Shown here piece after piece: positions 5,391 to 43,674 of a stretch of 64,000 nucleotides of DNA. Location: assembly GCA_963816535.1 (NCBI GenBank), contig CAWFKW010000006.1, positions 324,334 through 388,333 on the forward strand, written 5' to 3'. The notes under the pieces were generated by a model, which saw only the letters and a program-made list of their open reading frames with translations, had not been told where the DNA came from and did not search any database. Position 1 is the first letter of the stretch; the number at the start of each line of letters is the position of its first letter. Both the position numbers and the translations under genes were made by a program. Origin of the DNA: an uncultured Ignavibacteria bacterium. Lineage in GTDB: Bacteria; Bacteroidota; Ignavibacteria; Tepidaquicellales; OLB5.

Positions 5391-6021
5391 ATTCTTTTAC
5401 AAGTTTAATTATATTTTTTCTCAATCCTTCAAGCGTAGTTGTATAAGGATCCAGCCGGGATACTTTTTCTGCAAGTTCTTTCTGCCCGATGGTATCAAAC
5501 CATTCGGCAAAGTCATTTCTTTTTCTGCCAAGCCTCAACTGTGTTTCAAAAACATGGTAATAAAAAGAGTCGATTGTGACTTTCTCCATAATTTCGGCAA
5601 ATTCCTTTAGATTTGACGCTTTATATTTCAGGGGGATGCAGAATGTCTTGCATGACATAAACTGAAAAGCGTCTCCCTCGTTGCAATTTACGTTATAAGC
5701 CTCTTTGCTGCGGAAATCTTCCAGCTTTGATACAAATGCCTGCCTCAAATCCTCGATACTTTTGAATGCAGTTATGTTGACGCTTGCAACCTGTTCGCCC
5801 AGCTCTCTCTGGTTTATTACATTTCTTATCCAGTAAGCAAAGTCATTTGGCGGTTCGGGGATCAGGTAATGATGCTGTTTCAGAAACCTGTGAGTATGAT
5901 AATAAATACAGCTATCAGGGGCTGTCTTAATATTTTCAAGAAGGCCCGCAACGTTGCGCGTCTTGATTCCCATCAAAACCGGGAGGTTGTATTCGGAATA
6001 AAAATGAAACGTCCTAGACAT
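5383..6021 (-). CDS. Conserved hypothetical protein, translationally coupled within the trehalose operon
   Basis: 212-aa ORF overlapping both neighbours by 8 nt. It has an internal repeat (NDFAYWIRNVINQRELGEQVASVN versus NDFAEWFDTIGQKELAEKVSRLD). Confidence 0.6.
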   Translation of the reverse strand: MSRTFHFYSEYNLPVLMGIKTRNVAGLLENIKTAPDSCIYYHTHRFLKQHHYLIPEPPNDFAYWIRNVINQRELGEQVASVNITAFKSIEDLRQAFVSKLEDFRSKEAYNVNCNEGDAFQFMSCKTFCIPLKYKASNLKEFAEIMEKVTIDSFYYHVFETQLRLGRKRNDFAEWFDTIGQKELAEKVSRLDPYTTTLEGLRKNIIKLVKEYE

Positions 6022-8924: not shown

Positions 8925-10300
8925 TTGAAAAGATATTTCTCAGAAAGCACTGTATTATTTGTCAGCGTGCTCAAGTGGGTTTTTTTATCCACGATTGTTG
9001 GTGTGATTGTCGGGTTGGCTACTACGGGCTTTTTGAAGCTCTTAAACATCAGCATTGCCGCGCTAAAGATTACCAATATTATTTTCTGCTGCTTCCGGCG
9101 GCTTTTTTTGTAAGCACTTTTATAATCCAATACCTTGCCCCCGATGCCGAAGGGCACGGCACTGAAAAAGTTATCGAAGCAGTGCACAAGAATTCGGGAA
9201 GAATAAAAGCTGCCGTAGTACCCGTTAAATTAGTTTCTACAATAATAACTCTTGCCGCGGGAGGCTCTGTAGGTAAAGAGGGGCCGTGTGCGCAGATAGG
9301 CGGCGGGCTCTCATCGTTGTTTGCCGACCTTTTAAGATTCGGCGATGAAGACCGGCGGAAACTTGTAATCTGCGGAATCAGCGCCGGGTTTGCGGCAGTG
9401 TTCGGCACGCCAATTGCCGGGGCGATCTTCGGGGTCGAAGTTCTATTTATCGGAAGTATCTTATATGAAGTGCTTCTCCCTTCCTTTATCGCCGGGATAA
9501 CAGCATACCAGATATCATCGTCGCTAGGATTAACTTATTTCCACCACACTATAAATTTTGTTCCCGTATTCAGCGAGGGTTTTTTCCTGAAGATCATGCT
9601 GGCAGGTTTGTTCTTTGGCGTGGTTTCCATAATATTCATTGAGACGCTCAAATATTTCGAAAAGCTTTCGGAAAAAATTAAAATATGGAAACCTCTTAAA
9701 GGCGTTATTGGCGGAGTTGTTTTAATAGGGCTCACGCTGATCTTTTCAAGTCAATATCTTGGGCTGGGCCTGGATTCAATTGAATCGAACTTAAAAGGCG
9801 GAAGTATTCCGTGGTACGCTTTTCTTGTAAAGATCCTTTTTACAAGTATTACATTGAGCTTCGGCGGAAGCGGCGGAATTGTTACGCCGATATTTTTTGC
9901 AGGAGCGGCATCGGGTTCTCTGTTTGCAGTCATTCTTGGGCTTGATCTTGCCACATTTTCCGGTATTGGGCTGGTTAGCGTCCTTGCTGGAGCGGCTAAT
10001 ACCCCGATTGCAGCGAGCATAATGGCTGTTGAATTATTCGGCCCCAAAATAGCGCCGTATGCTACTGTAGCTTGCGTTATCAGCTTTCTTATCACCGGCC
10101 ACAGAAGCGTTTACCCTTCGCAAATTCTTTCATTCAAGAAATCATCCTCCCTTAACGCGGATATAGGTATTGAAATAGAAGATGTTGAACCGCAGGAACA
10201 ACAGCAAATAGTCAACTTCAAGCGCCGAAGCCTTATAGCATTTGGAAAACTAAGAAGGCGAAAAAAAGCAAAGACTGAAAAAATGGATGATCCCGGCTGA
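8925..10300 (+). pseudogene. ClC-family chloride channel gene interrupted by an apparent 1-nt frameshift (or a sequencing error)
   Basis: Frame 3 (8925-~9080) encodes the first TM helix, KWVFLSTIVGVIVGLATTGFLKLL. Frame 2 from ~9080 encodes YFLLLPAAFFV..APDAEGHGTEKVIEA..GKEGPCAQIG..GIFGVEV..GIVTPIFF. Adding one T to the T4 run at 9082-9085 joins the two frames. Confidence 0.7.
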
Positions 10301-24126: not shown

Positions 24127-24279
24127 AGGTCATGCTCAAAATCAGCAGTTTACAATTTTATTTTCGTATATGTATGAAAAAGAGAAGCTTAGATATTAAG
24201 CAGCAGTTTATAAGAAGTTTAGCGGTGTGATTAGGTCTTTTTATTTTTGCTTGATCCAGGAAGGTCGTGTTTTCCGGAG

Positions 24280-24369
24280 CGGAGAGGGAGGGATTCGAAC
24301 CCTCGATAGCCCTTAACAGACTATGTCGGTTTAGCAAACCGGTGGTTTCAGCCACTCACCCACCTCTCC
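24280..24369 (-). tRNA. tRNA-Ser (anticodon GCU)
   Basis: The reverse complement folds by hand. Acceptor GGAGAGG/CCTCTCC. 3-bp D-stem with a long D-loop. Anticodon stem CCGGT/ACCGA with loop TTGCTAA (GCT). Long variable arm. T-arm GAGGG-TTCGAAT-CCCTC. Discriminator G. No encoded CCA. Confidence 0.9.
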
Positions 24370-24370
24370 G
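24327..24370. repeat. attL core: 44-bp direct repeat (tRNA-Ser nt 1-43 plus 1 nt)
   Basis: cggtttagcaaaccggtggtttcagccactcacccacctctccg is identical to 32908-32951. Confidence 0.9.
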
Positions 24371-24457
24371 GTGGTTAAAAGCTCAAACAAAACACTTGTA
24401 AAGAGCAAATATAGCGAAAAGGCAGGATATAAAAAACGGACAAAATCAGAATCCAGA

Positions 24458-24502
24458 GTACCCAAATAGTACCTAACAGTACCCAAAATAGTGCCCAAAA
24501 TC
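24458..24502 (+). promoter_or_regulatory. Four tandem ~11-bp iterons (candidate integrase arm-type or operator sites)
   Basis: GTACCCAAATA GTACCTAACA GTACCCAAAATA GTGCCCAAAATC, ending 32 bp upstream of the int1 ATG. Related sequences lie near attR (32449, 32479, 32855). Confidence 0.55.
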
Positions 24503-24534
24503 TTTTTAAGTGAGTTCTGGAAAGGGGTTCAACT

Positions 24535-25575
24535 ATGTTTCTCTCAAAACAACACAAAGGGACTTACTACCTGTTCTACAATGATGAAATTACAGGCAAA
24601 AGGAAAAAAATCTCAACCAAAACAAAAAAGAAACCGGAAGCATATAATTTTCTAAATTCATTCAAAGCAGGTTTAACGCCTAAGAAAAACCCTGTAATCT
24701 ATTTGGAAGGTCTAAAAGATGAAGTGCTTAAATACACACAAACTAACCTGTCCCCCGCTACACACTGCCTTTATATAACTGCTTTTAAAAACCTGTTAAG
24801 TTTCTTAGGTAATAAGCCTATTAAGTTAATTACTACAAAGGAACTGGATAACTATAAAAACAAGCGGGCTAATGAGATAAGAAAAGCTACCGTCAATATT
24901 GAGCTATGCTGTATCAAAGCTATTTTCAATCTTGCTTTAAAATGGGACTTTATAAACAGTAACCCCGCTAAAGAAGTTAAGAAATTCAAAATTGAGGAAC
25001 GGGAAATATTAAGTTTCTCGGATACGGAGCTTAAAATATTGTTTGACGCTATTCCCGAAGGCAACATCAGGAATATTGTTCTTTTTGCCCTAAACACAGG
25101 TTGCAGGATTAACGAAATTCTAAACGTACAGATAAAGGATATTAACCTAAAAGAAAAAGTCCTTACCATAATGAATAAGGACGATTTTAGAACTAAGTCG
25201 GGCAGAATAAGACAGATACCGGTTTCGGACGCCTTAGAAACGCTGTTAAGGGGGTTATTAGGGCAGGAAACTAATGTATTTGAATTAAACGACCCTGAAA
25301 CATATTTGTTCGTTAATAGCAAGCGCTGTAAGTATGATAAAAATTTCATTTCAAAAAAGTTCAAGGAATATCTTCGCATGGCGGGTTTACCGGAAAAGTT
25401 TCATTTTCACTGCCTTAGGCATACATATATAACCAACCTTGTTAAAGCAGGGGCGAATATCAACTATATTAAACAGATAGCGGGGCACGCTGACCTGAAA
25501 ACAACGGAAAATTATATTCATATAGGAATTGAGGATTTGCGAAATGCAGTTAATAAAGTGAATGTAAATTATTAG
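24535..25575 (+). CDS. int: Tyrosine recombinase/integrase (full length, with N-terminal arm-binding-type domain)
   Basis: C-terminal catalytic pattern ..TGCRINEIL.. / FHFHCLRHTYITNL / GHADLKTTENYIH (R..HxxR..Y). N-terminal KGTYYLFYNDEITGKRKKISTKTKKKPEA resembles Bacteroidota integrase arm-binding domains. Confidence 0.9.
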   Translation: MFLSKQHKGTYYLFYNDEITGKRKKISTKTKKKPEAYNFLNSFKAGLTPKKNPVIYLEGLKDEVLKYTQTNLSPATHCLYITAFKNLLSFLGNKPIKLITTKELDNYKNKRANEIRKATVNIELCCIKAIFNLALKWDFINSNPAKEVKKFKIEEREILSFSDTELKILFDAIPEGNIRNIVLFALNTGCRINEILNVQIKDINLKEKVLTIMNKDDFRTKSGRIRQIPVSDALETLLRGLLGQETNVFELNDPETYLFVNSKRCKYDKNFISKKFKEYLRMAGLPEKFHFHCLRHTYITNLVKAGANINYIKQIAGHADLKTTENYIHIGIEDLRNAVNKVNVNY

Positions 25576-25640
25576 AAAATAACGTTATATTTTATAGAAT
25601 TTAATTCAAAGAATGGCGTAAAAACATAATAAAAATATAA

Positions 25641-25797
25641 TCAGCGTTTCTTATCTCATAGCTTAAACTCGCAAGTTTAAAATTTTACACGAAGATAAGG
25701 AGACGCTCACGCATTCCAGCGTGGGCTCTCTTATTCGTGTAAGGGTTTCTTGCGAGACCTAAGCTGCGGTAAGATGTAGTTTCACGCTGGTTTTTTT
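25641..25797 (+). other. 157-nt rod-like imperfect palindrome ending in a T7 run (candidate structured RNA, large terminator, or folded-DNA site)
   Basis: Hand-paired nested stems: 25642-47/25784-89, 25649-55/25768-74, 25660-65/25760-65, 25668-75/25749-56, 25685-25703/25727-42 (with bulges), and 25705-12/25719-26 closing a 6-nt loop. T7 follows at 25791-97. Confidence 0.5.
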
Positions 25798-26136
25798 ATT
25801 TAGCAGCAAACACAAAACAAAACACTGACTATGAAAGAGATGTCGATTAGAACGCATCGATAATATTTTCAAGTCAACTCTTGAATATTTAATTAATCAA
25901 ATGGGTAAATATAACGAACATAAATTTTTATCAAAGAGGTACATTTGGGATGCGCAAGAGGGAAATGTAATATATGAACAATTAGGTAATTTGGGATATT
26001 ATTGTATTAATATTTTCCTCACGTCAAGCTCAATAAATAACCAAGTAAAAGATTATCACTCAAAACATTAATAACAGTACATAAATTAATTAAATCTCAA
26101 ACCTATTCTTAATGCCTAAATTAACTGGAGGCTAAA

Positions 26137-26286
26137 ATGAAAAAAATGTTAATATTTTTATCTTTATTATTAGCGTTGCATATAATACAAATGCTGGAGC
26201 ATAAATTTTGTCACGTTGTGGCTATAGACAGAATGTTGTATAAGCCGTTTCCGCTATGTCCATACTTTTATGCCCATTTTACTTAA
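26137..26286 (+). CDS. Unlisted 49-aa small protein, copy A (hydrophobic N-terminus, Cys/His-rich C-terminus)
   Basis: MKKMLIFLSLLLALHIIQMLEHKFCHVVAIDRMLYKPFPLCPYFYAHFT. The paralogue at 27579 differs at 13 nt, of which 9 are synonymous. Confidence 0.6.
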   Translation: MKKMLIFLSLLLALHIIQMLEHKFCHVVAIDRMLYKPFPLCPYFYAHFT

Positions 26287-26356
26287 CAGTTAACGGCATT
26301 AGGTTGTTGTTTCACGCTGGTTTTTTTATTGACCTAAACACAAAACATTTACTTAG

Positions 26357-26740
26357 ATGAACAATACTGAAATAGAATTCTTTGAAGCAGAAGTCCAATC
26401 TCTCAGAGCCAATGGCTATACAATACATGTGAAAAACACTACGTCAGCAGTTCTCGTAAAGAAAGAAAAGATTAATTATTTAATAGCATTCGCTCTCGCC
26501 GCAATTGAAGCCTTATTTTTTGTAATGCTTTGCAGAACATCAGTTAACACAACGAACCTCATTATTCTATTCGGAATTACCTGTGTAGTGTACTATCTTG
26601 TGCGAAAGGAACACTATTTGTTTATTAAATTGAATTCTATTGGACAATTAGAGAAGAAAAAATACAAATCCGTGAAGCCCGGCGAATTGCTAAATCTCTT
26701 TGACTTGTTTCAACAAGATGCCTTCTCAAATGATTATTAA
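26357..26740 (+). CDS. Hypothetical small membrane protein (2 predicted TM helices)
   Basis: 127-aa ORF with hydrophobic segments YLIAFALAAIEALFFVML and LIILFGITCVVYYLV. Island cargo. Confidence 0.5.
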   Translation: MNNTEIEFFEAEVQSLRANGYTIHVKNTTSAVLVKKEKINYLIAFALAAIEALFFVMLCRTSVNTTNLIILFGITCVVYYLVRKEHYLFIKLNSIGQLEKKKYKSVKPGELLNLFDLFQQDAFSNDY

Positions 26741-26805
26741 CGGCTTTATTGAACCTTGAAAATGATAACACAGTTTTTGAACAATAAGCACTAATTCGCA
26801 ATTCT

Positions 26806-27519
26806 ATGAGTTTGAAATGTCCTAAATGCGGTCTGTTTAATCCCGACAATGCTCTTAGGTGCGATTGTGGTCATTCCTTTGTTAAAAAGCCTGAGACGAG
26901 CGTCCCGTCCGAAAACGAATTTGAATCTACAAATCGGCATGACTTTCTCAGAAAGCAAGTACTGAGCGGGAAAACAACTGCCGAAGCACTACAACTATGG
27001 AAGGAACGACAACTAGTACCCGTGTCAACTGAGAAGGTAAGAGAAGCAGAAGCGGGTAACGACCCAATAAAACCAGTGGAAGAAAAACCCGTTACCCAAG
27101 ATGATGCAACCGTCAATCAAAAAAGTACAAAAAAGATTGCTTTTGTTAAACGAAAAATTGTAATTTTTTCCTTAGTGATTGTTTCAATTGTTGTATTAGT
27201 CCTCATTGCTAAAGGCTATTTCTTTTCAACCGCAGAAGACTTCAATTCCACTTACATAATAAAAGTCTTCCCTTCAATTAAAGATGACCCTTATGATATT
27301 CAATATGAAATTAAAAGGAAAGATGGAACAATAATAATAAAGGATTTGAAAAGTCAAGAGGGTTATAATGATTACGAGGCTAATGGTAAAAAGCTGTCTG
27401 TAACAATCAGTCAAAGGTACAATGACCAAAACATAAAACTTGAAATATGGGAAAAGTTAAGTCTAAAGTTAAATGACGAATTGAAAGGAACGGGGAAACT
27501 AACGCTAAAGACTGAATGA
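26806..27519 (+). CDS. Zinc-ribbon / single-pass membrane protein of unknown function
   Basis: N-terminal CPKCG..(11)..CDCGH zinc ribbon, a charged linker, TM segment IVIFSLVIVSIVVLVLIA, then a ~90-aa C-terminal domain. Confidence 0.55.
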   Translation: MSLKCPKCGLFNPDNALRCDCGHSFVKKPETSVPSENEFESTNRHDFLRKQVLSGKTTAEALQLWKERQLVPVSTEKVREAEAGNDPIKPVEEKPVTQDDATVNQKSTKKIAFVKRKIVIFSLVIVSIVVLVLIAKGYFFSTAEDFNSTYIIKVFPSIKDDPYDIQYEIKRKDGTIIIKDLKSQEGYNDYEANGKKLSVTISQRYNDQNIKLEIWEKLSLKLNDELKGTGKLTLKTE

Positions 27520-27578
27520 TGATACCGCAAAACAAAACATTTTTGGCATATTTATAGCTAAATAAACTGGACGCTAAA

Positions 27579-27728
27579 ATGAAAAAAATGCTGATATTTT
27601 TATCTTTATTATTAGCTCTGCATATAATACACGTGCTGGAGCACAAATTTTGTCACGTTGTGGCTATAGATAAAATGTTATATAAGCCGTTGCCGCTATG
27701 TCCCTACTTTTATGCTCATTTTACTTAA
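27579..27728 (+). CDS. Unlisted 49-aa small protein, copy B
   Basis: MKKMLIFLSLLLALHIIHVLEHKFCHVVAIDKMLYKPLPLCPYFYAHFT. It lies in the second copy of the 175-bp repeat. Confidence 0.6.
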   Translation: MKKMLIFLSLLLALHIIHVLEHKFCHVVAIDKMLYKPLPLCPYFYAHFT

Positions 27729-28506
27729 CAGTGCTATGATACTCAAAACAAAACATATAAAAATGAAAGCATTATTACCCGTCTCAATATTATTCATTTC
27801 CTTACTTTCATTTATTTGCTCGACTAATACAGAAATAGAGCAGAACAAAAATATAAATGCGGTCAAAGGTATACGTTTATACTATGATACTTTACATCTG
27901 AATCCTATAAACAAAGAATTTTACTTCCCCACAAATTTATATACTCATGATTCAATTTATTTATCGGATAGGTCTGACACAATTACCTTTAAGAGTTATT
28001 TGAAACCCAATAATGACCATTGGCAACGAATGAATGAATGGTATTCCGAAGCGCTGAGGGCATTAAAAGAACCAAAAATATATAATTTGGATACAACGCT
28101 AGAAATTTATCGCTTTACTTGGCTAAGAACCTTTCATAAACCCGTAGCTATAAGAATTGAAAACAATAATAATAAATACAAACTGTTTTTGAAAATAAGT
28201 GACGGGGCAGGCGGGTATTCACCGGGTAAACTAATTGTGAATGAAAATAAAATTCTAACATATGATGAATGGAATATTTTTAAAGATATGCTAAGTAAAA
28301 TAAATTTTTGGCAACTCGTTCCAGAAACCCTCGAAAACATGGGTAATGATGGTGCAGGGTGGATTTTAGAAGGCAAAACAAAAGATAAGTATAATTTTAT
28401 GACAATATGGAATCCAAACGAAAAACATCATCAAGATTTTCGTGAGTGCTGTGAATATTTAATAAATTTAAGCAAACTCAAAATAAAGAAATCTGAATTA
28501 TATTAA
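27712..28506 (+). CDS. Hypothetical secreted protein (likely start ATG 27763)
   Basis: Starting at 27763 gives the signal peptide MKALLPVSILFISLLSFICSTN. The upstream 17 codons overlap the small ORF and the repeat. Confidence 0.5.
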   Translation: MLILLNSAMILKTKHIKMKALLPVSILFISLLSFICSTNTEIEQNKNINAVKGIRLYYDTLHLNPINKEFYFPTNLYTHDSIYLSDRSDTITFKSYLKPNNDHWQRMNEWYSEALRALKEPKIYNLDTTLEIYRFTWLRTFHKPVAIRIENNNNKYKLFLKISDGAGGYSPGKLIVNENKILTYDEWNIFKDMLSKINFWQLVPETLENMGNDGAGWILEGKTKDKYNFMTIWNPNEKHHQDFRECCEYLINLSKLKIKKSELY

Positions 28507-28530
28507 GGCAATAAAAACTTTGAGAGAAAA

Positions 28531-29376
28531 ATGAAAACAATATATTTATTTCCTGTTCTAATTATCTGTTTGTTGATAAATTTTAATACCAGCGTATCTC
28601 AAAATAATCAGGGCAGCGACAAAAAATCCGCTTCTGGTATAAAGTCTACAACAACATTCTTAATACTTTACGATAATGGTAAGCCTACGGGGGATTCCTT
28701 AATAAATTATTATATTGAATATGACAAAGAAGGAAATATATTGCAGGATTCCGATTATTATAAAGGGCATTTATTTGCAAAATATTTTTATAAGTACGGT
28801 AAAAATGGTTTTATAAAAGCCGAAACGTTTGAATATTATAACGAAAAAACGGGGCAAGTTAATGACGTCATAAAGACAAATTACAACAATGATGGGAAGA
28901 AGCTGGAAACAATCCATTACACTTTTATATTAGGGGATACTCTTTTAGATAGAAGTATTTATAAATATGACACAAAAAATGACTGTGAACTTAGCGTAAA
29001 CGTCACTGATAACGATTCAATTGTTAGCAAGACGTGTTTTAAATATGATAAAAATGGTAACGCTATTAAAGAAACCCATACAAACTCAAATGGTGTAGTA
29101 AATCTAACTTATAGCAGATTGTTTAATGACTCCGGTAATTTGATACAGGAAATATCGACTAACACAGATAAAGATTTTGAGTATAAAATTATTTGCAAAT
29201 ACAATGATTCTAATATAAAAACCGAGCAAATCAGATACGACGGCAACGGGAATTTACAAAGCAGTACAAAATTTACAAAATACGATTCAAATGGAAATCT
29301 TTTGGAAAGTATTACATACAATAGCAATGATAATATACTTTCAGTTTACCGCAACCAATTTCAATATTTTAAATAG
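28531..29376 (+). CDS. Secreted protein with YD-like repeats
   Basis: Signal peptide, then recurring (K)YD..GN(L/I)..(E/D).. units (YDKEGNILQDSDYY, KYDKNGNAIKETH, RYDGNGNLQSS, KYDSNGNLLESITY). Confidence 0.5.
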   Translation: MKTIYLFPVLIICLLINFNTSVSQNNQGSDKKSASGIKSTTTFLILYDNGKPTGDSLINYYIEYDKEGNILQDSDYYKGHLFAKYFYKYGKNGFIKAETFEYYNEKTGQVNDVIKTNYNNDGKKLETIHYTFILGDTLLDRSIYKYDTKNDCELSVNVTDNDSIVSKTCFKYDKNGNAIKETHTNSNGVVNLTYSRLFNDSGNLIQEISTNTDKDFEYKIICKYNDSNIKTEQIRYDGNGNLQSSTKFTKYDSNGNLLESITYNSNDNILSVYRNQFQYFK

Positions 29377-29407
29377 CAACAAACCATGAAATCAACATTA
29401 GTTATAA

Positions 29408-29431
29408 AGCGGATTAAATCCCGCTTTTTTT
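29408..29431 (+). terminator. Rho-independent terminator
   Basis: AGCGGAT-taa-ATCCCGCT (one bulged C) followed by TTTTTTT. Confidence 0.6.
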
Positions 29432-29459
29432 ATTTCTATACCCCTCTTAAATACTTATA

Positions 29460-29975
29460 TTGGTTAACGGGAAGGGAAAAATGAGTAAAAAAGACGCTAA
29501 AACCAGTACAGGTGAATTACCACAACGGTTATTTAAAATTGCCATGTCTTATATTGATTCCATGACAGACGAGGAGCGAAAGGAATTACTTATTAGAAAC
29601 TATGTTCCTAACGAAACTTATGAACAATGGCAACTTAAAATTAAAGAATCCGAAATACAGTACTTAAAACAGGATGTTGAATTAGAGAAAGAAAGTTCTC
29701 AACGGCTAAAAAATTTATACCTTGAATTGGCTTCAAAAAGCCCGTACGATTTAGCTTGTAAAATTGTACGAGTAAATCCCTCAAAGTATAATGACCTGTT
29801 AGTACCGCTATATGAATATATTGCCGAAAGGTTCACTTACAAAAAGAAAGACGGCAGTATAAACCGCTCTCAGGTCGCAAGACATATCAGAAAAATAGCA
29901 GGTAATACCAAAAAATCAGAACGAACAGTTCAAGCCGCATTAAGCCGTTACATTAACTCAAAACAGAAACGCTAA
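29460..29975 (+). CDS. Hypothetical protein, possible C-terminal HTH (likely start ATG 29481)
   Basis: ORF of 164-171 aa. The C-terminal INRSQVARHIRKIAGNTKKSERTVQAALSRYI looks HTH-like. No family recognised. Confidence 0.45.
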   Translation: MVNGKGKMSKKDAKTSTGELPQRLFKIAMSYIDSMTDEERKELLIRNYVPNETYEQWQLKIKESEIQYLKQDVELEKESSQRLKNLYLELASKSPYDLACKIVRVNPSKYNDLLVPLYEYIAERFTYKKKDGSINRSQVARHIRKIAGNTKKSERTVQAALSRYINSKQKR

Positions 29976-30168
29976 ATTCATGCAATTATTTTTCTCCAAC
30001 AAATTGTAGTAAAAAGTGTATTTAATTTTGTTCTATGAATGAGAAAATCATAGTTCAAAAATCAGTTAGGTATTCAACGGCAGCAAGGTTTCTTTTTGAT
30101 GTGCATTCCCTTTCCCGCACTCAATTGGTTTTCTCCCCTGTTGCCGTTTCTGTTTTCAGAGAAAATCA

Positions 30169-31083
30169 ATGCCTCGCTCCCAGATAAATAAATCTCCTGT
30201 AATATATCTTGAACAACTACAAGCGCAAGTGTTAAAATACACAGCGTCAAATCTTGCTCTAAGCACTCATCAACTGTACGTTACGGCTTTCAAAAACTTA
30301 ATTGGTTTCTTAGGCAATGTTCCCGTTACGCTAATTACTTCAAAGCACATTGACGATTTTAAGAGTTTTCGCTCTGAACAAATATCAAAATCAACTGTAA
30401 ATATTCAATTATGTTGTATAAAAGCAGCTTTTAACCTTGCTGTTAGATGGAATATGCTTGAAGTCAGTCCCGCCGAAAACGTTAAGAAGTTCCGAGTAGA
30501 GCAAACGGAAATACTGTCATTCCGAGATGATGAATTAAGGGTACTGCTTTCAGAAATTCCAGACGGCAACTTAAAAAATATTGTTTTATTTGCCATATAC
30601 ACTGGTTGTCGTATAAACGAAATCCTAAACATTCAGCATAAAGACATTGACCTCACAGAAAGAATTTTATTTATACGCAACAATGCAGAAACGGGATTCA
30701 AAACCAAAACAGGGCGCAACCGTCAAATCCCTATTTCAGATAGCTTGTACAACCCCTTACAACGCCTTTTAAAGCACGATAGCAACGTTTACTGCTTATC
30801 TGAACCTGACAGATACCTATTTACCAACCGCAAGGGCTTCAAATTCCAAAAAGACTATATAAGCAAGCAATTCAAAAATCATTTAAGAGCTTGTAACCTG
30901 CCAGAAAAATTTCATTTTCATTGCCTGCGTCACACATTCGTAACAAACCTTATCCGAAACGGGGTCAATATTTCTTTCGTTAAGGAGTTAGCGGGGCATT
31001 CTAATATTTCAACCACGATGAATTATATACACCTTGTTACGGATGACCTTCGAGACGCTGTAAACAAGATTAAGTTTGGTTAG
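30169..31083 (+). CDS. int: Tyrosine recombinase/integrase paralogue lacking the N-terminal arm-binding-type domain
   Basis: By eye roughly 55-60% identical to Int1 from Int1 residue ~46 onward (PVIYLEQL.., TGCRINEILN, FHFHCLRHTFVTNL, GHSNISTTMNYIH). An in-frame TGA at 30097-99 prevents any N-terminal extension. Confidence 0.85.
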   Translation: MPRSQINKSPVIYLEQLQAQVLKYTASNLALSTHQLYVTAFKNLIGFLGNVPVTLITSKHIDDFKSFRSEQISKSTVNIQLCCIKAAFNLAVRWNMLEVSPAENVKKFRVEQTEILSFRDDELRVLLSEIPDGNLKNIVLFAIYTGCRINEILNIQHKDIDLTERILFIRNNAETGFKTKTGRNRQIPISDSLYNPLQRLLKHDSNVYCLSEPDRYLFTNRKGFKFQKDYISKQFKNHLRACNLPEKFHFHCLRHTFVTNLIRNGVNISFVKELAGHSNISTTMNYIHLVTDDLRDAVNKIKFG

Positions 31084-31085
31084 GC

Positions 31086-32330
31086 TTGAATATGAAAGTT
31101 TACATCCCCTCCACTTTGCCAATAGCCCTGTTTCCTGAAAAGCATAAGGACAAGTATTTCTATTTCCTTCACAAAATTTATGAGGAAAGAGTATTTAATA
31201 AGGAATATGAATATAACTCTTACGTTAACCTGAATGCTTCAATTATGAGATATATTATAGGTCGAGGAAGCTTTGAACCTGTTAGAAGTGCCTTAATCGC
31301 TAAAGGTATTATTGAAACTGATAACTGGTATGTTGTAGGTAAGAAGTCCAAAGGTTACAGGTTAACTTTTCAATATAGCGGTGTTAAACATCAGCAGTTA
31401 GAGATAACGGATAGTAATATTATTAACAGGGTAAGCGTATTTAAGCAAAGGCAGGAATACAACATTCCGCTGGGAATAGAATATCAAAAACTCCATGAAT
31501 GGCTTAATTTATTTTCTATTGACTATGAAAAAGCTATCCAGTTCATTAATTCAAACTACGCCGCCGACACTCACAAATGGATATGTAATACCATTTCTGT
31601 AGATAAAATTAAGGAAAAGGACATCTTTTTTGTTGCCGATAGTTCAGCAGGACGGGTTCATACTAATATAACCAATCTTTCAAGAGAGTTGAGGCGGTTT
31701 CTGCTATTTGATAATAAGCCTCTTGTCAATATTGACCTTGCAAACTCCCAACCGTTTTTGTTTAATATCTTAATCAAAAAATATGTTGACGGCGGCAACG
31801 TTTCTTTTTCTAACAATCTTCCCAATTCTCAATCACATCTTCTACCTTATGATGGCTACTATGATGGAAAAGTTAATAATGACATTGATTTATATTTACA
31901 ACTAACAAGCGACGGCAAGTTTTATGAGTATTTAATGCAACAAATGAATTACAACGGCGATAGGAACATGTTTAAAAAAGAGTTTTTCGGTAAGGTTTTT
32001 TACTCTAAAAATAGCTCTAATTATGTTTTCAGGGAACGGAAAGAGTTTAAACGGCTATTCCCTACAGTTTCTAACATTATTGATTACCTCAAAAAGGATG
32101 ACTATAGGGCGCTGCCCGTCATGTTACAACGTGCAGAACGTAAGATTATCATTAATAAAATTGTCAGGAGAATTGTCATTGAGCGTCCCGAACTCCCTAT
32201 TAGCACTATTCATGATAGCATTCTGACAACCAAAGGGAATGAAAACTATGTTAGCGATGTAATAAGGGAGGAATTTTCTAAAGAAATTAATTTGATACCG
32301 TCCATTAAGACCGAAATATATGGTTCTTAA
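31086..32330 (+). CDS. Minimal family-A (PolA/T7-like, TV-Pol-like) polymerase-like protein
   Basis: Ordered motifs AGRVHTN, PLVNIDLANSQPFLFNIL (A), RNMFKKEFFGKVFY (B) and ISTIHDSILTT (C). It starts 3 nt (TTG) or 9 nt (ATG 31092) after the int2 stop. Confidence 0.55.
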   Translation: MNMKVYIPSTLPIALFPEKHKDKYFYFLHKIYEERVFNKEYEYNSYVNLNASIMRYIIGRGSFEPVRSALIAKGIIETDNWYVVGKKSKGYRLTFQYSGVKHQQLEITDSNIINRVSVFKQRQEYNIPLGIEYQKLHEWLNLFSIDYEKAIQFINSNYAADTHKWICNTISVDKIKEKDIFFVADSSAGRVHTNITNLSRELRRFLLFDNKPLVNIDLANSQPFLFNILIKKYVDGGNVSFSNNLPNSQSHLLPYDGYYDGKVNNDIDLYLQLTSDGKFYEYLMQQMNYNGDRNMFKKEFFGKVFYSKNSSNYVFRERKEFKRLFPTVSNIIDYLKKDDYRALPVMLQRAERKIIINKIVRRIVIERPELPISTIHDSILTTKGNENYVSDVIREEFSKEINLIPSIKTEIYGS

Positions 32331-32907
32331 AGGCACAGTGAATGACGTTAGCGGCGTTTGCCATCAAGCGCTGTTTTCACTTTTTAGGTAATATTATATT
32401 TTTTTTAACTTCGCTTTTTAGCGTAATTTATATTAAGAGGCTATTAAGGTACTCACAAGCCATTCCAAAATCGGAATAGTGCCGAAATATGATAATACGA
32501 TACTTAGAAATTTGAGAAATCTGACATATCGTTATAAGCTAAACAAAGTTAATATAATAAAGATATTGTTACTTAATGTTGTATAGGCGGAAACGTCATA
32601 GAGAAATTACTACCTTACAAAGTTAGAAATTTTAACCATAACAGCTATTGATTTTATTTTGCAGTTGAATTAATTTGCAGACGTTAAAACTTCAAACAGC
32701 TAAAATTGAAAACAGAAATTTTATTTACACATTCCCGTCAGGGTTACAAAAAGGGTTTAGCTGCCCCGAAGTTTTCCTTGACGGGATTTGTGTTTAAAAG
32801 GAACTCACTACAAAAGAAATTAATCATTTTTTAGGGCTTGAAGTAACTAAAGAAGTACCTACGTTTTCGATTTGTTTTGTTTCCCCTGCAAATTTGCCAC
32901 TTACCAA

Positions 32908-32951
32908 CGGTTTAGCAAACCGGTGGTTTCAGCCACTCACCCACCTCTCCG
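32908..32951. repeat. attR core: orphan 5' fragment of tRNA-Ser
   Basis: Identical 44 bp. The sequence on the side where the tRNA 3' half should be (..ttaccaa) is not tRNA-like. Confidence 0.9.
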
Positions 32952-33381
32952 TGATAAATTAGCTGAATTATTACCAAACATAATCATTTCTCAGGAATTT
33001 TCACAGACAAAAAAATAGACCACCGAGAGTTCAATTTACGATGAACATATTCTGGATCCAAATCTCCTGTATAGAAACCTCCTTACTCCGAAATCCTATT
33101 ATGCCTCTCCCAGGCAGTAGCTTGGGAGGGAGTAATGAGTTTAGCCGCTGTTTTCACAAATTACTGCCGCTGGTGGCGTTATAGCCAACAACTTTTAAAT
33201 ATAATGTATCCTTAGAAAAATATCTTTCATAAAAAACTCATATTACTGCCGTTGTTGGCGTTATCACCAGCAACTTTTAAGCCGGGAACTTCTTACGAAA
33301 TTCAGCATTGAGAATTAAATGGCAAAAAGCGAACTTAAGCTAAATATTTTCCTAATCTTGAATTCAAACCTCAACTAGTAT

Positions 33382-34167
33382 ATGAAAACTCAGAAAAATA
33401 TCTTTCATAAAAAACTCATTGGCAAGTGGGGTAAATTTACTATTTATCTGGTTGATGATGAAATAGTCCGCAACAAAGCCGAATATGCAGAAGAATTCAG
33501 CGACTACGGCGTGAACATTGGCAAGAGAGGACTGGCTACGCTGAATTTCAAATTCATACCGAAAGATGAAATATGGATAGCAAAATCCATCAAAGCGTCA
33601 GAAAGACATTTTATTATCGGTAACGCGCTATCTTACATAAAAAATATTGAAAACGGAGTAGAACCCGGCAAGGCATATGATAATGCCCTTAAACAGGAGC
33701 AGGACCGCCGCACAAATGAGGCAATAAATAAGCTTCATATAAAGACAAAGACGCTTTTTGATAATCCGCTTCATAAAAATGTGCCAAAGAAAGTTTATAA
33801 GAAGAAATATCTTGTAATAAAAGATAAGAAAGATATCGTAAGCGTATACTTAATCAATGCGCAGGTTGTGCGCGATTTGTACAAACCCGATTATGTTGAA
33901 GGCGGGCACGGTTATGTTTATGAATGGATACCTGAAAATGAAATATGGATTGATGTGAAAGTGAAGCAGGATGAAATACCGGTAATAATACTCCACGAAT
34001 ACCTGGAAAGGATATTGATGAAGTATAAGAAGTTTCCTTATGTAAGGGCGCATAACGCCGCGCTAAGAGTTGAGTTTGAGCACAGGGGAATTTTCAACAA
34101 GAAAGACGCCGCCGCGCTGAGCAGGAATGTTGTGCTGAATAAGCTCTTGCAGAATATCAAATACTAA
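33382..34167 (+). CDS. Hypothetical protein with internal two-fold repeat
   Basis: 261-aa ORF with repeated IP(K/E)(D/N)EIWI blocks. HEYLE is not a canonical HExxH motif. No family recognised. Confidence 0.5.
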   Translation: MKTQKNIFHKKLIGKWGKFTIYLVDDEIVRNKAEYAEEFSDYGVNIGKRGLATLNFKFIPKDEIWIAKSIKASERHFIIGNALSYIKNIENGVEPGKAYDNALKQEQDRRTNEAINKLHIKTKTLFDNPLHKNVPKKVYKKKYLVIKDKKDIVSVYLINAQVVRDLYKPDYVEGGHGYVYEWIPENEIWIDVKVKQDEIPVIILHEYLERILMKYKKFPYVRAHNAALRVEFEHRGIFNKKDAAALSRNVVLNKLLQNIKY

Positions 34168-40054: not shown

Positions 40055-41644
40055 TTATTTTACCAATACCATTTTCTTTGTTTCTATATAAGACCCAGTG
40101 TGGAGTGTATAATAATAAACCCCCGATGCGTAATCGGCCGCGTCCCAGTTGATTTCGTACGAGCCGGGCTTCAGGTTTCCGCTCGCTAAAGTGGCGACTT
40201 CTCTCCCGAGCTGGTCATAAACTTTCAGGCTCGTTTGTCCCGAAACCTGTTTAGGAATATCGAACCGTATCTTTGTAGTTGGGTTAAACGGATTTGGATA
40301 GTTCTGGCTGAGAGAAAATGAATTTGGTACCTGACCGCTTACTGGTTCTATTCCGACCGGGAAATCAATTAAAGCGGTCCATACGCTGAGCCCGCTGCCG
40401 GTTAGCCTGGTCCACATTGGCCTTATTCTGCCGTTAGCGGCTGTAATGTTGTTATAATCCCCGAAAAATGTACCCGAGGTCGGCGTGAACGGGCTGGCGC
40501 TTATTCTTTCGTTGATCCAAGTTGTGCCGCCATCGGTTGAATGCGCCATATAAACGTCGGTGCCTGCGTTAGTATAATTTCTCCTGTCATAAAAAACTGT
40601 GTAAAGATAACCTGTTGTCTGGTCAATCGTCATCCATGTAAAGAATTGCTCTCTTGCGGTGGTGTCATCATTAACCCTTATCGGGGCGCTCCAGTTGAGT
40701 CCGCCGTTTGTCGACCTTATGATCTTCACGTCATGATCTCCGGGCGCGACGCTATCGGTGTAGTTAATATAGATGTAGCCTCTGTACGGCCCGTTGCTTA
40801 CGTCGCAGCATGTAATTGGCAAGCCATTGGCTCTGTATATTCCGCTTATATCATAATCCCATCCGCCAACCTGTGTGCCCGCAATAATGTTATTTGCCAG
40901 CCATGTACTGCCCCCGTCCGTAGATTTTGTGAAGAACAGCCTGGGAACATTATGGCTTAGCGGCCCGGCCCAGCCTACATAAACTTCGCCGTTGGGACCC
41001 ACGCAAGGTACGGCTCCCTCCTGTGTGTTATCGCTATCCACGCAATCGCCTGCAACCTGGTTAAGCCTTGCGGGCGTACTCCATGTTAAGCCGCCGTCTG
41101 TAGATCTTGAGAACATTATGTTTGAACTATCATTCGAATTTGTCGTGCCATAGACATCGAACCTTGTCCAGGTTACATAGATCCAGTTGCCATGCGAACC
41201 ATGAGTAAAATCTACGCAGGGCCAGGCCTTATCTTCCTGCCTGGGAAGCTGGAAGCCTGTAAAGGAACCATCGTTGTAACTTGCTCCGCCATTAGTTGAT
41301 TTCTGGATAACAATTCGGTCTATGAATGTGCCGCCCCCGGGATTAGTAAGATGAACATAATAGAAATTACCGGCTGTATCACAAGTAAGCGCAGGGTCTC
41401 CCCAAACGCTGTAGCTTGACGATATGGTATTTATGTTCCATGTTGTTCCGCCATCAGACGAATAATAAGCATTATTAATATTAGCTCCGGCAGTTAGCTG
41501 GTTTATGTTCTTTGGGTTTATTGTTATCGAAACTTCCTCGGGTTGGTTTTGCGAGCTTATCATCACGTTTGTGTAAGACGACTGGCTGTATAAGATGTTA
41601 ACCGAGATCAGCAAAGTTACAGTAAGTAAAAATATCCGCTTCAT
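40055..41644 (-). CDS. BNR/Asp-box repeat beta-propeller protein with T9SS C-terminal sorting domain
   Basis: Paralogue of 38663, with Asp-boxes SSDGGTTW, STNGGASY, STDGGLTW, STDGGSTW, STNGGLNW and STDGGTTW. C-terminus reads NYPNPFNPTTKIRFD...GVYYYTL..K. Confidence 0.8.
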   Translation of the reverse strand: MKRIFLLTVTLLISVNILYSQSSYTNVMISSQNQPEEVSITINPKNINQLTAGANINNAYYSSDGGTTWNINTISSSYSVWGDPALTCDTAGNFYYVHLTNPGGGTFIDRIVIQKSTNGGASYNDGSFTGFQLPRQEDKAWPCVDFTHGSHGNWIYVTWTRFDVYGTTNSNDSSNIMFSRSTDGGLTWSTPARLNQVAGDCVDSDNTQEGAVPCVGPNGEVYVGWAGPLSHNVPRLFFTKSTDGGSTWLANNIIAGTQVGGWDYDISGIYRANGLPITCCDVSNGPYRGYIYINYTDSVAPGDHDVKIIRSTNGGLNWSAPIRVNDDTTAREQFFTWMTIDQTTGYLYTVFYDRRNYTNAGTDVYMAHSTDGGTTWINERISASPFTPTSGTFFGDYNNITAANGRIRPMWTRLTGSGLSVWTALIDFPVGIEPVSGQVPNSFSLSQNYPNPFNPTTKIRFDIPKQVSGQTSLKVYDQLGREVATLASGNLKPGSYEINWDAADYASGVYYYTLHTGSYIETKKMVLVK

Positions 41645-42018: not shown

Positions 42019-43674
42019 CTATTTCACCAAAACCATTTTTTTGGTTTCAGTAAATGAACCTGAAACAAGCTTATAATAATATATCCCGGAAGCATAGTCT
42101 GCGGCATCCCAGTTAACTTCGTACGAGCCGGGATTTATATTGCCGCTTACTAAAGTTGTAACCTCTCTGCCCAGCTGGTCGTAAACTTTTAATGTTGTTT
42201 CACCTTTCACGCCGGCCGGGATATCATATCTTATTTTCGTAGTCGGGTTAAATGGGTTCGGATAATTCTGGCTCAATCCAAACGATTTTGGAACCTGGTT
42301 GCTTGCTGTGTTAATTCCTACCGGGAAATCTATCAATGCGGTCCACACGCTGAGGCTGCCTGAAAGCCGTGTCCACATTGGCCTTACGCGTCCGCTTGCA
42401 GCCGAAATCCCGATGTAATCGCCAAAGAAATTTCCTGTAGTAGGTAAAAACGGACTTGAGCTTATCCTCTCATTTATCCACGTATTACCGCCGTCCGTTG
42501 AGTGCGCCATATAGACGTCTGTGTTTGCATTGGTATAATTTCTTCTGTCGTAAAAGTCAATATAAATAATTCCGGTCGACTGGTCAATCGCCATCCACGA
42601 TAAGAACTGTTCCTTCCCTGCGGGGTCGTCATTCACTCTTATCGGGGCGCTCCAGCTAACTCCGCCGTTTGTTGACTTAACTATTTTTACGTCGTGGTCA
42701 TTCGGGCCGGCGCTATCGGTATAATTAATATATATGTTTCCTCTGTATGGACCGTTGCTTACATCGCATAGAGTGCAAGGCAGGCCGTTGCATCTTTGGA
42801 GCCCGTTTATTAAATAATCCCATCCCCCCGGTTGAGGAGCGACGATCATGTTATTAGGGAGCCATGTGTTCCCTCCGTCGGTTGATTTGTCAAAAAATAC
42901 AGAAAAACTATTTACGCCTGATGGCCCCACCCATGCGTCGTACAACTCGCCATTTGGCCCTACGCAAGGCACAGCGCCTTCGGTAGTGTAATCAGCGTCC
43001 ATGCAATCGCCTCCGCGCCTGCTAAGCTTGTAAGGCGTTGACCATGTGCCGCCGGCATCTGTTGAGCGCGAGAACATAATGTGAGAGCTATCAGCGGGAT
43101 TAGGCGTGCCGTAATCGTCAAACTCTGTCCATGTAACATATATCCAGTTGCCTCGGGGCCCGTGAGTCCAGTCAATACCTATGCCGTGCTTATCCTGGAT
43201 CTTTGGCAGGTCAAGCCCGGTGAACGAACCAGGGTCGTTCCATGTGGCGCCGCCATTGCTTGATTTCTGACATATAATTCTGTCTACATAATACGGAAAC
43301 GGATGCCCGGGATCATTGGCGAGATGGAAATAATAAAATGAGCCCGCTGTATCGATGGCTATTATTGGGTCGCCCCACACGCCCCAGGAAGAGTTCACTA
43401 TAAATCCGGTTACCCATGTGGCTCCGCCGTCAGTTGAATAATCTGAATGATCTAAATTGGCTCCGCCGTCAGTTGAATAATCTGAATGATCTAAATTGGC
43501 CCCGCCTACAACCTGGTTAATGTTTTTTGGATTTACGCAAATGGACGGTTCTTCCGGTGCAAACCCGTTATGAGTCGAATTATCGATCATAACATTTGTA
43601 TATGACAACTGGCTGAACAATAGGGAAGGTAAAATCAATATTGAAACGAGAATAGTAAAATATATCTTCATCAT
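42019..43674 (-). CDS. BNR/Asp-box repeat beta-propeller protein with T9SS C-terminal sorting domain
   Basis: Closest paralogue of 40055. It contains a 13-aa in-frame duplication (GGANLDHSDYSTD x2) and the same T9SS C-terminus. Confidence 0.8.
   Translation of the reverse strand: MMKIYFTILVSILILPSLLFSQLSYTNVMIDNSTHNGFAPEEPSICVNPKNINQVVGGANLDHSDYSTDGGANLDHSDYSTDGGATWVTGFIVNSSWGVWGDPIIAIDTAGSFYYFHLANDPGHPFPYYVDRIICQKSSNGGATWNDPGSFTGLDLPKIQDKHGIGIDWTHGPRGNWIYVTWTEFDDYGTPNPADSSHIMFSRSTDAGGTWSTPYKLSRRGGDCMDADYTTEGAVPCVGPNGELYDAWVGPSGVNSFSVFFDKSTDGGNTWLPNNMIVAPQPGGWDYLINGLQRCNGLPCTLCDVSNGPYRGNIYINYTDSAGPNDHDVKIVKSTNGGVSWSAPIRVNDDPAGKEQFLSWMAIDQSTGIIYIDFYDRRNYTNANTDVYMAHSTDGGNTWINERISSSPFLPTTGNFFGDYIGISAASGRVRPMWTRLSGSLSVWTALIDFPVGINTASNQVPKSFGLSQNYPNPFNPTTKIRYDIPAGVKGETTLKVYDQLGREVTTLVSGNINPGSYEVNWDAADYASGIYYYKLVSGSFTETKKMVLVK
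43420..43497. repeat. Perfect 2 x 39-bp tandem duplication inside the BNR gene
   Basis: ggctccgccgtcagttgaataatctgaatgatctaaatt occurs twice back to back. Confidence 0.95.

Follow-up and report, generated by a model that had tools for sequence, protein, structure and literature searches.

Mobile elements that integrate into tRNA genes almost always replace the 3' part of the gene; in this way, as it is usually explained, the functional copy keeps the host promoter. The locus described here raises the question of what happens to the target when an element uses the 5' half instead. It lies in a 64-kb stretch of DNA from an uncultured Ignavibacteria bacterium (contig CAWFKW010000006.1; hereafter the window, to which positions refer unless another contig is named), where a minus-strand tRNA-Ser(GCU) gene adjoins an 8.6-kb segment with two tyrosine integrase genes. 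We consider it very probable that positions 24371-32907, together with one copy of a 44-bp repeat, constitute a single site-specific integrative island of Ignavibacteria, formed by the mechanism proposed below.

A sequence-only reading of this DNA had delimited the segment by a perfect 44-bp direct repeat, and this stands: the 44-mer CGGTTTAGCAAACCGGTGGTTTCAGCCACTCACCCACCTCTCCG has two exact copies in the window, 24327-24370 and 32908-32951, and a search of the window allowing up to three mismatches yielded no third copy, with none expected from 100 shuffles. By this count of two, it is not a dispersed repeat. The sole tRNA called by ARAGORN in the window is a tRNA-Ser(GCT) at 24279-24369 on the minus strand; the Rfam covariance model RF00005 matches 24280-24369 over its full length with 56.3 bits (gathering score 29), and the acceptor stem has 7/7 pairs. 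Both programs agree with the earlier proposal that the left copy of the repeat comprises nt 1-43 of an intact tRNA gene plus one upstream nt. Numbered from G1 at 24369, the anticodon stem is formed by nt 29-32 and 40-43 and the loop by nt 33-39, with the anticodon at 35-37; nt 43 is hence the final paired base of the anticodon stem. The right copy is an orphan 5' fragment, as had also been proposed, with no tRNA 3' part beyond 32908-32951. The G+C content inside the segment is indeed lower than outside, but the contrast is smaller than hand counts had indicated (25-33% versus 40-50%): 0.335 in 24371-32907, against 0.415 and 0.434 in the 10-kb flanks.

The principal evidence for insertion comes from a relative with an empty site. 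A scan of metagenome contigs of the Joint Genome Institute (JGI), with a 261-aa protein whose gene lies just right of the repeat as the query, recovered Ga0265342_10000772, which is L072 in our numbering of related loci. The two loci are syntenic, with amino acid identities of 87% for an aspartyl-protease protein, 55% for a 167-aa protein, 90% for the 261-aa protein, and 73% for a TPR protein, and the flanks share ~78% nucleotide identity. L072 has one intact tRNA-Ser(GCT). Its positions 9696-9789 equal window 24277-24370 (100% over 94 nt), its positions 9746-9852 match window 32908-33014 (98%), and the two matches overlap by precisely the 44-bp repeat. L072 thus joins the left flank, tRNA, and right flank across 44 bp and lacks 8581 bp of the window, namely, 24371-32907 and one copy of the repeat. 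In terms of the definition used by Islander, the interval is missing from a syntenic relative that retains an empty attB; an intact tDNA is accompanied by a 5' fragment in the same orientation, upstream in the sense of the tRNA; and tyrosine recombinases with their catalytic residues (int1 and int2) are encoded inside the interval. Taken together, these observations support the view that the 8.6-kb segment is a genuine site-specific island inserted in the 5' half of the tRNA gene.

The same comparison bears on the question raised above. Positions 24371-24534, which now precede the intact tRNA, are absent from L072, and the native upstream DNA has stayed with the orphan fragment; it is therefore the element that supplies the 5' half of the tRNA and its upstream region, in agreement with what had been claimed from the letters alone. 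The functional tRNA gene is accordingly a composite, in which the 3' part is chromosomal and the 5' half (beyond the crossover), along with all the upstream DNA, is derived from the element.

The earlier reading had placed a tyrosine integrase 165 bp inside attL, and an open reading frame (ORF) of 346 aa does start at 24535, the repeat ending at 24370. The integrase beside attL is, however, not the only one in the island, as had been supposed: a second paralogue, int2, lies toward the other end. Both match PF00589 with E values of 1e-31 to 1e-33, and int2 is 57% identical to int1 over residues 51-342. The catalytic R191, K221, H292, R295, H318, and Y327 of int1 are conserved in the family alignment, and int2 has the corresponding motifs (TGCRINE, HCLRH, and GHS...Y). 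The NCBIfam Xer models score 107-146 bits against int1 and int2, below their cut-offs of 220-335, and neither protein qualifies as XerC or XerD by this test. There are >230 homologues of int1, and its close relatives in the genome collection all come from metagenome-assembled genomes of the Ignavibacteria/Chlorobiota type. The short integrases, uniform in length at 301-306 aa, group in a clade of their own, which a rough neighbor-joining tree places as sister to the int1 clade. We propose that the additional N-terminal domain of ~50 aa in int1 binds the arm repeats; for the short integrase, candidate roles are a partner of Int1 or a resolvase of the circular form.

The crossover position is not directly readable, because attL, attR, and attB are identical over 44 bp. 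In the window and in the related locus L133, the identity blocks extend as far as the edge of the anticodon stem (nt 43 in the window); that of L033 ends immediately after the anticodon loop (nt 39), and those of other relatives end at 46-68. Further, the closest integrases have Ser-GCT and Arg-CCT targets, and the stem GGTTT/AAACC is common to both. On the strength of the block ends in the window, L133, and L033 and of this shared stem, the crossover most likely falls in the 7-nt anticodon loop. The block would then correspond to the anticodon sublocation of Williams, extended to the opposite end of the gene.

We propose the following sequence of events. The attP of the island would have carried a copy of nt 1-43 of tRNA-Ser(GCU), and Int1, bound to the tandem arm repeats and the anticodon stem, would have recombined it with the chromosomal tRNA gene. 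The products would be a tRNA gene with the chromosomal 3' part and the 5' half and upstream DNA of the element, on the one hand, and a displaced 5' fragment on the native upstream region, on the other. Because the upstream DNA of the rebuilt tRNA is that of the element, its transcription would have to start within the 164-bp arm, divergently from int1. The island has a conserved backbone, with a long Int beside the tRNA and a helix-turn-helix (HTH)-like protein, a short Int, and a polymerase-A-like protein at the opposite end, the cargo between them being variable. After excision, the island probably replicates as a plasmid-like circle. Within this scheme, the repeat, the tRNA, the insertion relative to the empty site, the use of 5' halves across the family, and the conserved backbone are shown here, whereas excision, replication, promoter use, the position of the crossover, and the division of labor between the integrases are steps that we infer.

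A candidate promoter is present in the arm (Table 1). The box TATATTTG fits TAnnTTTG, which we take to be the -7 promoter element of the Bacteroidota type. The same box is found in the related locus L180 at -47 to -40, and a version with one mismatch occurs in L001. The native upstream region has TATGTTTG at 32975-32982 (-32 to -25), which is conserved between the orphan side and L072. We tentatively suggest that TATATTTG serves as the promoter of the rebuilt tRNA.

Table 1. Features of the island and its attachment sites in the window (L numbers denote related loci)
Feature	Position	Strand	Remarks
Intact, rebuilt tRNA-Ser(GCU)	24280-24369	-	nt 44-90 host-derived; nt 1-43 in shared repeat; ARAGORN, Rfam
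attL copy of 44-bp identity block	24327-24370	.	includes entire anticodon stem-loop
P' arm between core and int1	24371-24534	.	only DNA now upstream of intact tRNA; homologous region in L001, L004, L180
Candidate -7 box TATATTTG (TAnnTTTG)	24406-24413	-	-44 to -37 from tRNA 5' end
Four tandem arm-type repeats AGTRCCYAA	24457-24498	+	10-12 bp spacing; 37 bp before int1 start codon
int1, long tyrosine integrase, 346 aa	24535-25575	+	Pfam PF00589, 1.9e-31; extra N-terminal ~50-aa domain
182-nt internal direct repeat, copy 1	26109-26290	+	holds 49-aa ORF 26137-26286 with signal-peptide-like start
Cargo ORFs of 127, 237 (zinc-ribbon-like N terminus), 264, and 281 aa (YD/RHS-like repeats)	26357-29376	+	no profile match
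182-nt internal direct repeat, copy 2	27551-27732	+	holds 49-aa ORF 27579-27728
171-aa protein	29460-29975	+	C-terminal ~75 residues resemble proteins preceding short integrase in other islands
int2, short tyrosine recombinase, 304 aa	30169-31083	+	PF00589; without N-terminal ~50 residues of int1
414-aa protein, predicted family A DNA polymerase fold	31086-32330	+	AlphaFold2 and Foldseek
P arm, far side of core	32331-32907	.	~32690-32907 conserved in other islands of same type (aligned with ends of L133, L137)
attR copy of identity block, orphan tRNA 5' fragment	32908-32951	. (minus-strand sense)	repeat match
Native tRNA upstream region	32952-33014	-	now abuts orphan fragment only; 98% identical to DNA upstream of intact L072 tRNA

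From left to right, the island reads tRNA (minus strand), 164-bp arm, int1, cargo ORFs, 171-aa protein, int2, 414-aa protein, 577-bp arm, and orphan fragment. The motif AGTRCCYAA has four matches in the window, where 1.35 are expected, and all of them are the arm-type repeats at 24457-24498. Variants of these repeats occupy the equivalent place in other loci, with two copies of AGTGCCTAG in L001, two of AGTAACTAA in L004, and four repeats in L180. In the P arm, AGTAACTAA and AGTACCTAC at 32842-32862 resemble arm-type sites (matches to the motif with one mismatch). The 171-aa protein is 35% identical (E 1e-8) to a 214-aa protein of L137, and its counterparts occupy the same place upstream of the short integrase in L133-L137. 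We suggest that this HTH-like protein might be a DNA-binding regulator or directionality factor.

Is the use of the 5' half peculiar to this island? Related loci (L numbers) were scanned for tRNAs and repeats around integrase homologues, and three arrangements emerged. The first comprises eight elements of 4.8-9.2 kb (L002, L003, L005, L008, L010, L021, L031, and L033), in which the integrase is preceded, at a distance of ~100-115 bp, by the orphan 5' fragment in the same orientation, with the intact tRNA at the far end. Their direct repeats begin 0-39 nt before the tRNA and extend to tRNA position 39-68, and the tRNA genes targeted are Ser-TGA, Ser-GCT, Ser-CGA, Arg-CCT, Arg-TCG, and Pro-GGG. 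Several of the repeats reach 27-55 nt upstream of the tRNA, and that of L003 includes the box, so these elements copy the promoter region as well. In elements of this kind (about 9440-10000 in most), the native tRNA promoter points through the orphan fragment into the integrase gene, raising the possibility that integration places int under a strong host tRNA promoter. The tRNAs beside the integrases of L012 and L031 had been entertained as cases of the conventional geometry; they were rejected as 68-nt 5' fragments with the last four nt missing and the acceptor stem broken.

The second arrangement is that of the window and is seen in four relatives, in which the 5' end of an intact minus-strand tRNA lies 130-170 bp before the integrase start: L180 (Ser-GCT, with an integrase 75% identical and four arm repeats), L001 and L004 (Arg-CCT), and L028 (Pro-TGG). 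Far ends that match it are found in L133-L136 and L137, where a protein of ~211 aa precedes a 302-aa short integrase; beyond this lie an arm with ~70% identity to window 32690-32907 and, finally, an orphan fragment of Arg-CCT nt 1-43. In the third arrangement, with eight loci in a clade of their own, an intact plus-strand tRNA lies just upstream of the integrase; the far ends were not recovered, and these loci are apparently conventional members. Judging by the bounded relatives of the first arrangement and the window-like relatives of the second, much of this Ignavibacteria integrase family uses the 5' half, and does so in two orientations relative to int. Also relevant to island structure is a second island from the same sample, contained in one 18,959-bp Logan unitig (ERR12036782; P0034/P0059) that has the long Int, the short Int, and the polymerase-like gene in the order of the window. 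There, the long integrase is followed by genes for AbiGi, restriction-modification, cyclase, and TIR, then by a 319-aa protein, and lastly by the short integrase and the polymerase-like gene. Another Logan unitig with a related integrase (L181, 7.2 kb) has no terminal repeats.

Some of these loci display further repeats around their tRNA targets. Fragments of the tRNA 3' end are repeated downstream of 5'-half targets: three are present in L003 (15820-16317), L028 has a 45-bp copy 4.1 kb away (5578-5622 and 9754-9798), and L001 has a 32-bp copy 70 bp away (9698-9729 and 9797-9828). In these three loci, it seems that different elements make use of the two halves of one tRNA gene. In L020 (261-485), four to five tandem units of ~52 bp lie between tRNA-Pro(TGG) and the integrase, each unit opening with the final 10 nt of that tRNA (CTATCCCGAC...). 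Inverted short AT-rich repeats of the ATTGATA/GTAATTG type flank tRNA-Arg(TCG) in L010 (9790-9843 and 15236-15300) and L031 (8904-8960), where they fall partly within the direct repeat that bounds the element.

The 414-aa protein encoded next to int2 offers a clue to how the island might be maintained. Its AlphaFold2 model, built from an alignment, has a mean predicted local distance difference test (pLDDT) score of 91.6. The top 50 Foldseek matches in PDB are all family A (Pol I-type) polymerases, with probabilities of 0.99-1.00 and E values of 8e-6 to 5e-4; they include Aquifex Pol1, the apicoplast polymerase, KlenTaq, Mycobacterium Pol1, T7 DNA polymerase, and Pol theta. By Foldseek, the model thus has the palm, fingers, and thumb of the family A fold. 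Invariant in the family are D217, which ends the strand 211-218 ('IDxxNSQP'), and H376-D377 in the beta-hairpin 373-382 ('TIHDS'). In our own reading, as opposed to a superposition, these might correspond to polymerase motifs A and C; the protein shows no clear motif B. The family has ~120 members and no Pfam domain, and homologues are found inside the bounded related elements L003, L005, L008, and L033. We propose, with moderate confidence, that the 414-aa protein is the probable replicase of the element. It would represent a polymerase A-fold family of ~400 residues that profile libraries have not named and, if active, would be among the smallest family A polymerases.

Homologues of this protein also occur elsewhere. 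One is encoded on a 35-kb Hymenobacter plasmid (NZ_CP060788.1, 2824-4398), near a gene for a nucleotide-binding (Par-like) protein and 2 kb of noncoding DNA. Others are found in 595-735-kb records labeled 'uncultured phage' (huge phages), e.g., LR756511.1, 395212-396360, with at most 35% identity over 98% of the length.

The cargo is variable across these islands. None of the six nonintegrase ORFs of the window island received a significant assignment in Pfam, PHROGs, NCBIfam, or PADLOC. The two copies of the 182-nt internal repeat are 90% identical. Their 49-aa ORFs, which lie upstream of the 127-aa and 264-aa ORFs, begin with MKKMLIFLSLLLALHI, have two cysteines each, and differ from each other at four residues; they may specify small secreted peptides. 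Other islands with the same integrase backbone carry defense-type cargo (the 18,959-bp unitig; L001, 11147-14761; L133, 700-7628; and L137, 747-8796). Across them, the sets include AbiGi, type I restriction-modification, guanylate cyclase with ThsB-TIR, Multi_ubiq/E2/ThiF(-JAB), and PLD-helicase-MmeI-type methylase genes. The cargo of the window matches none of these sets.

Outside the island, L072 has an extra gene for a 225-aa membrane protein (8962-9639) between the homologue of the 167-aa protein and the 3' end of the tRNA, where the window has ~150 bp (24127-24278); this looks like an ordinary difference in gene content. Direct repeats of 42 nt (86%) and 38 nt (89%) occur at window 33157-33280 and 33204-33419, respectively, between the orphan fragment and the 261-aa gene. 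The second overlaps the start of that gene, and this 430-bp stretch is ~220 bp longer than in L072. Further away, ~930 bp of L072 (16714-17645) matches both window 40056-40986 (77%) and window 42019-42897 (73%), which indicates a pair of paralogous genes ~2 kb apart.

Several observations weigh against parts of the account given above. The template modeling (TM) scores of the Foldseek matches to the 414-aa protein are modest (0.24-0.41), and the protein has no sequence-level match to any PolA profile in Pfam or to any PDB sequence. The promoter call depends on a single motif of 8 nt, and this motif shows no enrichment across the window (70 found versus 66.6 expected). The cargo has no recognizable function, and no excisionase was identified by profile search. 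The breaks of Logan unitigs at both repeats are uninformative about a circle, and the island is known here only in its integrated form. Unitig ends lying 30 nt inside the repeats (ERR12036782) had been considered as evidence for a circle and were rejected, since any 44-bp repeat produces them at k=31. Finally, the presence of two integrases could signal a fused pair of elements.

This last point deserves to be pursued. Two elements might have integrated successively in the same tRNA gene and fused with the loss of the internal att site, one contributing int1 and the cargo (~24371-30000) and the other int2 and the polymerase-like gene (~30000-32907). Although int1 and int2 are paralogous and in the same orientation, and tandem arrays at tRNA genes are well known, no tRNA remnant is detectable between the repeats: Smith-Waterman comparisons on both strands gave best scores of 19-20 against a shuffled mean of 19.6. 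For the same reason, a detectable tandem array, in which each member would have an integrase and a tDNA fragment, was rejected, no internal tRNA fragment rising above the shuffled background. Stand-alone relatives of 5-6 kb (L003, L005, and L008) do consist of one long integrase and a polymerase-like gene, which speaks for a fusion, but the short integrases form a coherent clade of 301-306 aa rather than random truncations, and the HTH-like protein, short Int, conserved arm, and orphan fragment recur together in L133-L137. Moreover, the 171-aa protein resembles, in its C-terminal part, the protein that precedes the short integrase in L137, and the order of long Int, cargo, short Int, and polymerase-like gene recurs in the second island. 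We hence regard a fusion as unlikely. Given the lack of an internal att remnant, the uniform clade of short integrases, the resemblance to L137, and the order in the second island, we treat the int1/int2 pair as part of a conserved backbone.

To about the same degree, we think it improbable that the island is a real insertion that has since become an immobile relic. Its being known here in integrated form, its uncharacterized cargo, and the failure of profile scans to recognize an excisionase would all suit a relic. Yet the two copies of the 44-bp repeat have remained identical, each integrase ORF is complete and retains its catalytic residues, and the arm repeats are intact. The element is also missing from the sole syntenic relative recovered (with flanks ~78% identical at the nucleotide level), so that this contig offers no indication that the element has resided at the site for long.

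A prophage or a conjugative or mobilizable element is a much weaker candidate, and we consider it very improbable. A tyrosine integrase next to a tRNA gene and homologues of the polymerase-like protein in huge-phage records might suggest one, but among the ORFs scanned against PHROGs (int1 left out), only int2 matched a family, and no ORF of at least 100 aa has a capsid, terminase, relaxase, or type IV secretion Pfam domain. A scan of IMG/VR yielded no relative of the polymerase-like protein and a best integrase match of 37% identity, and 8.5 kb is too small for a tailed phage or an integrative and conjugative element. It is hardly credible, even for a window from a metagenome-derived assembly, that the structure arose through misassembly or through a local duplication having nothing to do with site-specific recombination: an independent Logan assembly of ERR12036782 is consistent with the same structure (a unitig spanning 24341-32937 and a right-flank unitig from 32922), the empty site of L072 matches to the base, and eight related elements have the same kind of boundary.

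Having weighed these alternatives, we return to the single site-specific island and to what it might represent. One possibility, which we advance tentatively and on balance rather doubt in its full extent, is that it belongs to an undescribed family of self-replicating Ignavibacteria islands that use the 5' halves of tRNA genes (Ser, Arg, and Pro), bring their own tRNA promoter, and carry variable cargo along with an arm-binding long integrase, an HTH-like protein, a short Xer-like integrase, and a miniature family A polymerase, the integrases either cooperating or dividing integration and resolution between them. Irrespective of this, one integrase family presents three arrangements, namely, a conventional-looking one, one with the orphan fragment beside int, and one with the rebuilt tRNA beside int. 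These offer a natural comparison for studying the cost of supplying a tRNA promoter and the change of target orientation in the evolution of an integrase. For annotation, islands with 5' fragments are easily missed by tools tuned to 3' fragments.

The searchable open-access literature held nothing on this Ignavibacteria family, its paired integrases, or the polymerase-like protein, although parallels to individual features exist. Elements with two tyrosine recombinases are exemplified by Tn554, with TnpA and TnpB, and by XerC/XerD pairs. As in these cases, the window island has two paralogous tyrosine recombinases in one element; unlike in them, the genes lie at opposite ends of the island, the N-terminal domain is present in int1 only, and any cooperation is hypothetical. 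The pSAM2-type elements of actinomycetes are integrative plasmids to which the island bears a likeness. With them and with the tycheposons (bioRxiv 10.1101/2020.12.28.424599), it shares a small size, a tyrosine integrase, a replication gene, variable cargo, a position beside a tRNA gene, and relatives with defense systems. It differs from both in its putative replicase, of ~400 aa and with a family A fold but no Pfam family, in its two integrase paralogues, and in its use of the tRNA 5' half.

Elements that use the anticodon loop in the conventional manner (the 'A' sublocation of the Williams 2002 classification used by Islander) resemble the island in having a block boundary at the anticodon stem-loop, an int gene beside attP with tandem arm sites, and a regenerated target. 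Where their blocks extend from the anticodon stem to the 3' end, however, that of the window extends to the 5' end (plus one nt), and the native promoter is consequently left with the fragment and not with the functional gene. The sequence-only reading had called this geometry uncommon; it is indeed rare but not new, being a documented minority class of ~4% of the islands in Islander, which lists 159 with 5' fragments and 3760 with 3' fragments (3919 in total). Likewise, a 2019 survey (PMC6563490) describes tRNA 5'-distal recombination as 'considerably less frequent' and cites Zhao & Williams 2002 and archaeal cases, one of them in tRNA-Ser. That element, CalSub-E1 of Ca. Caldiarchaeum subterraneum (PMC6563490), is similar in that a tyrosine-recombinase element uses the 5' half of a tRNA-Ser gene; it is, however, archaeal and of an unrelated element type. 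A close parallel in architecture is provided by the 5'-fragment islands of Islander, which likewise have a tyrosine integrase between an intact tDNA and an upstream 5' fragment in the same orientation and restore the 5' part of the gene from the element. In contrast to them, the trait described here is common to several clades of one Ignavibacteria integrase family and occurs in two orientations, and the window island adds a short integrase and a polymerase-A-like gene. The island thus falls in a known minority class, within which its two orientations, two integrases, and polymerase A-like gene look like undescribed features of a family.

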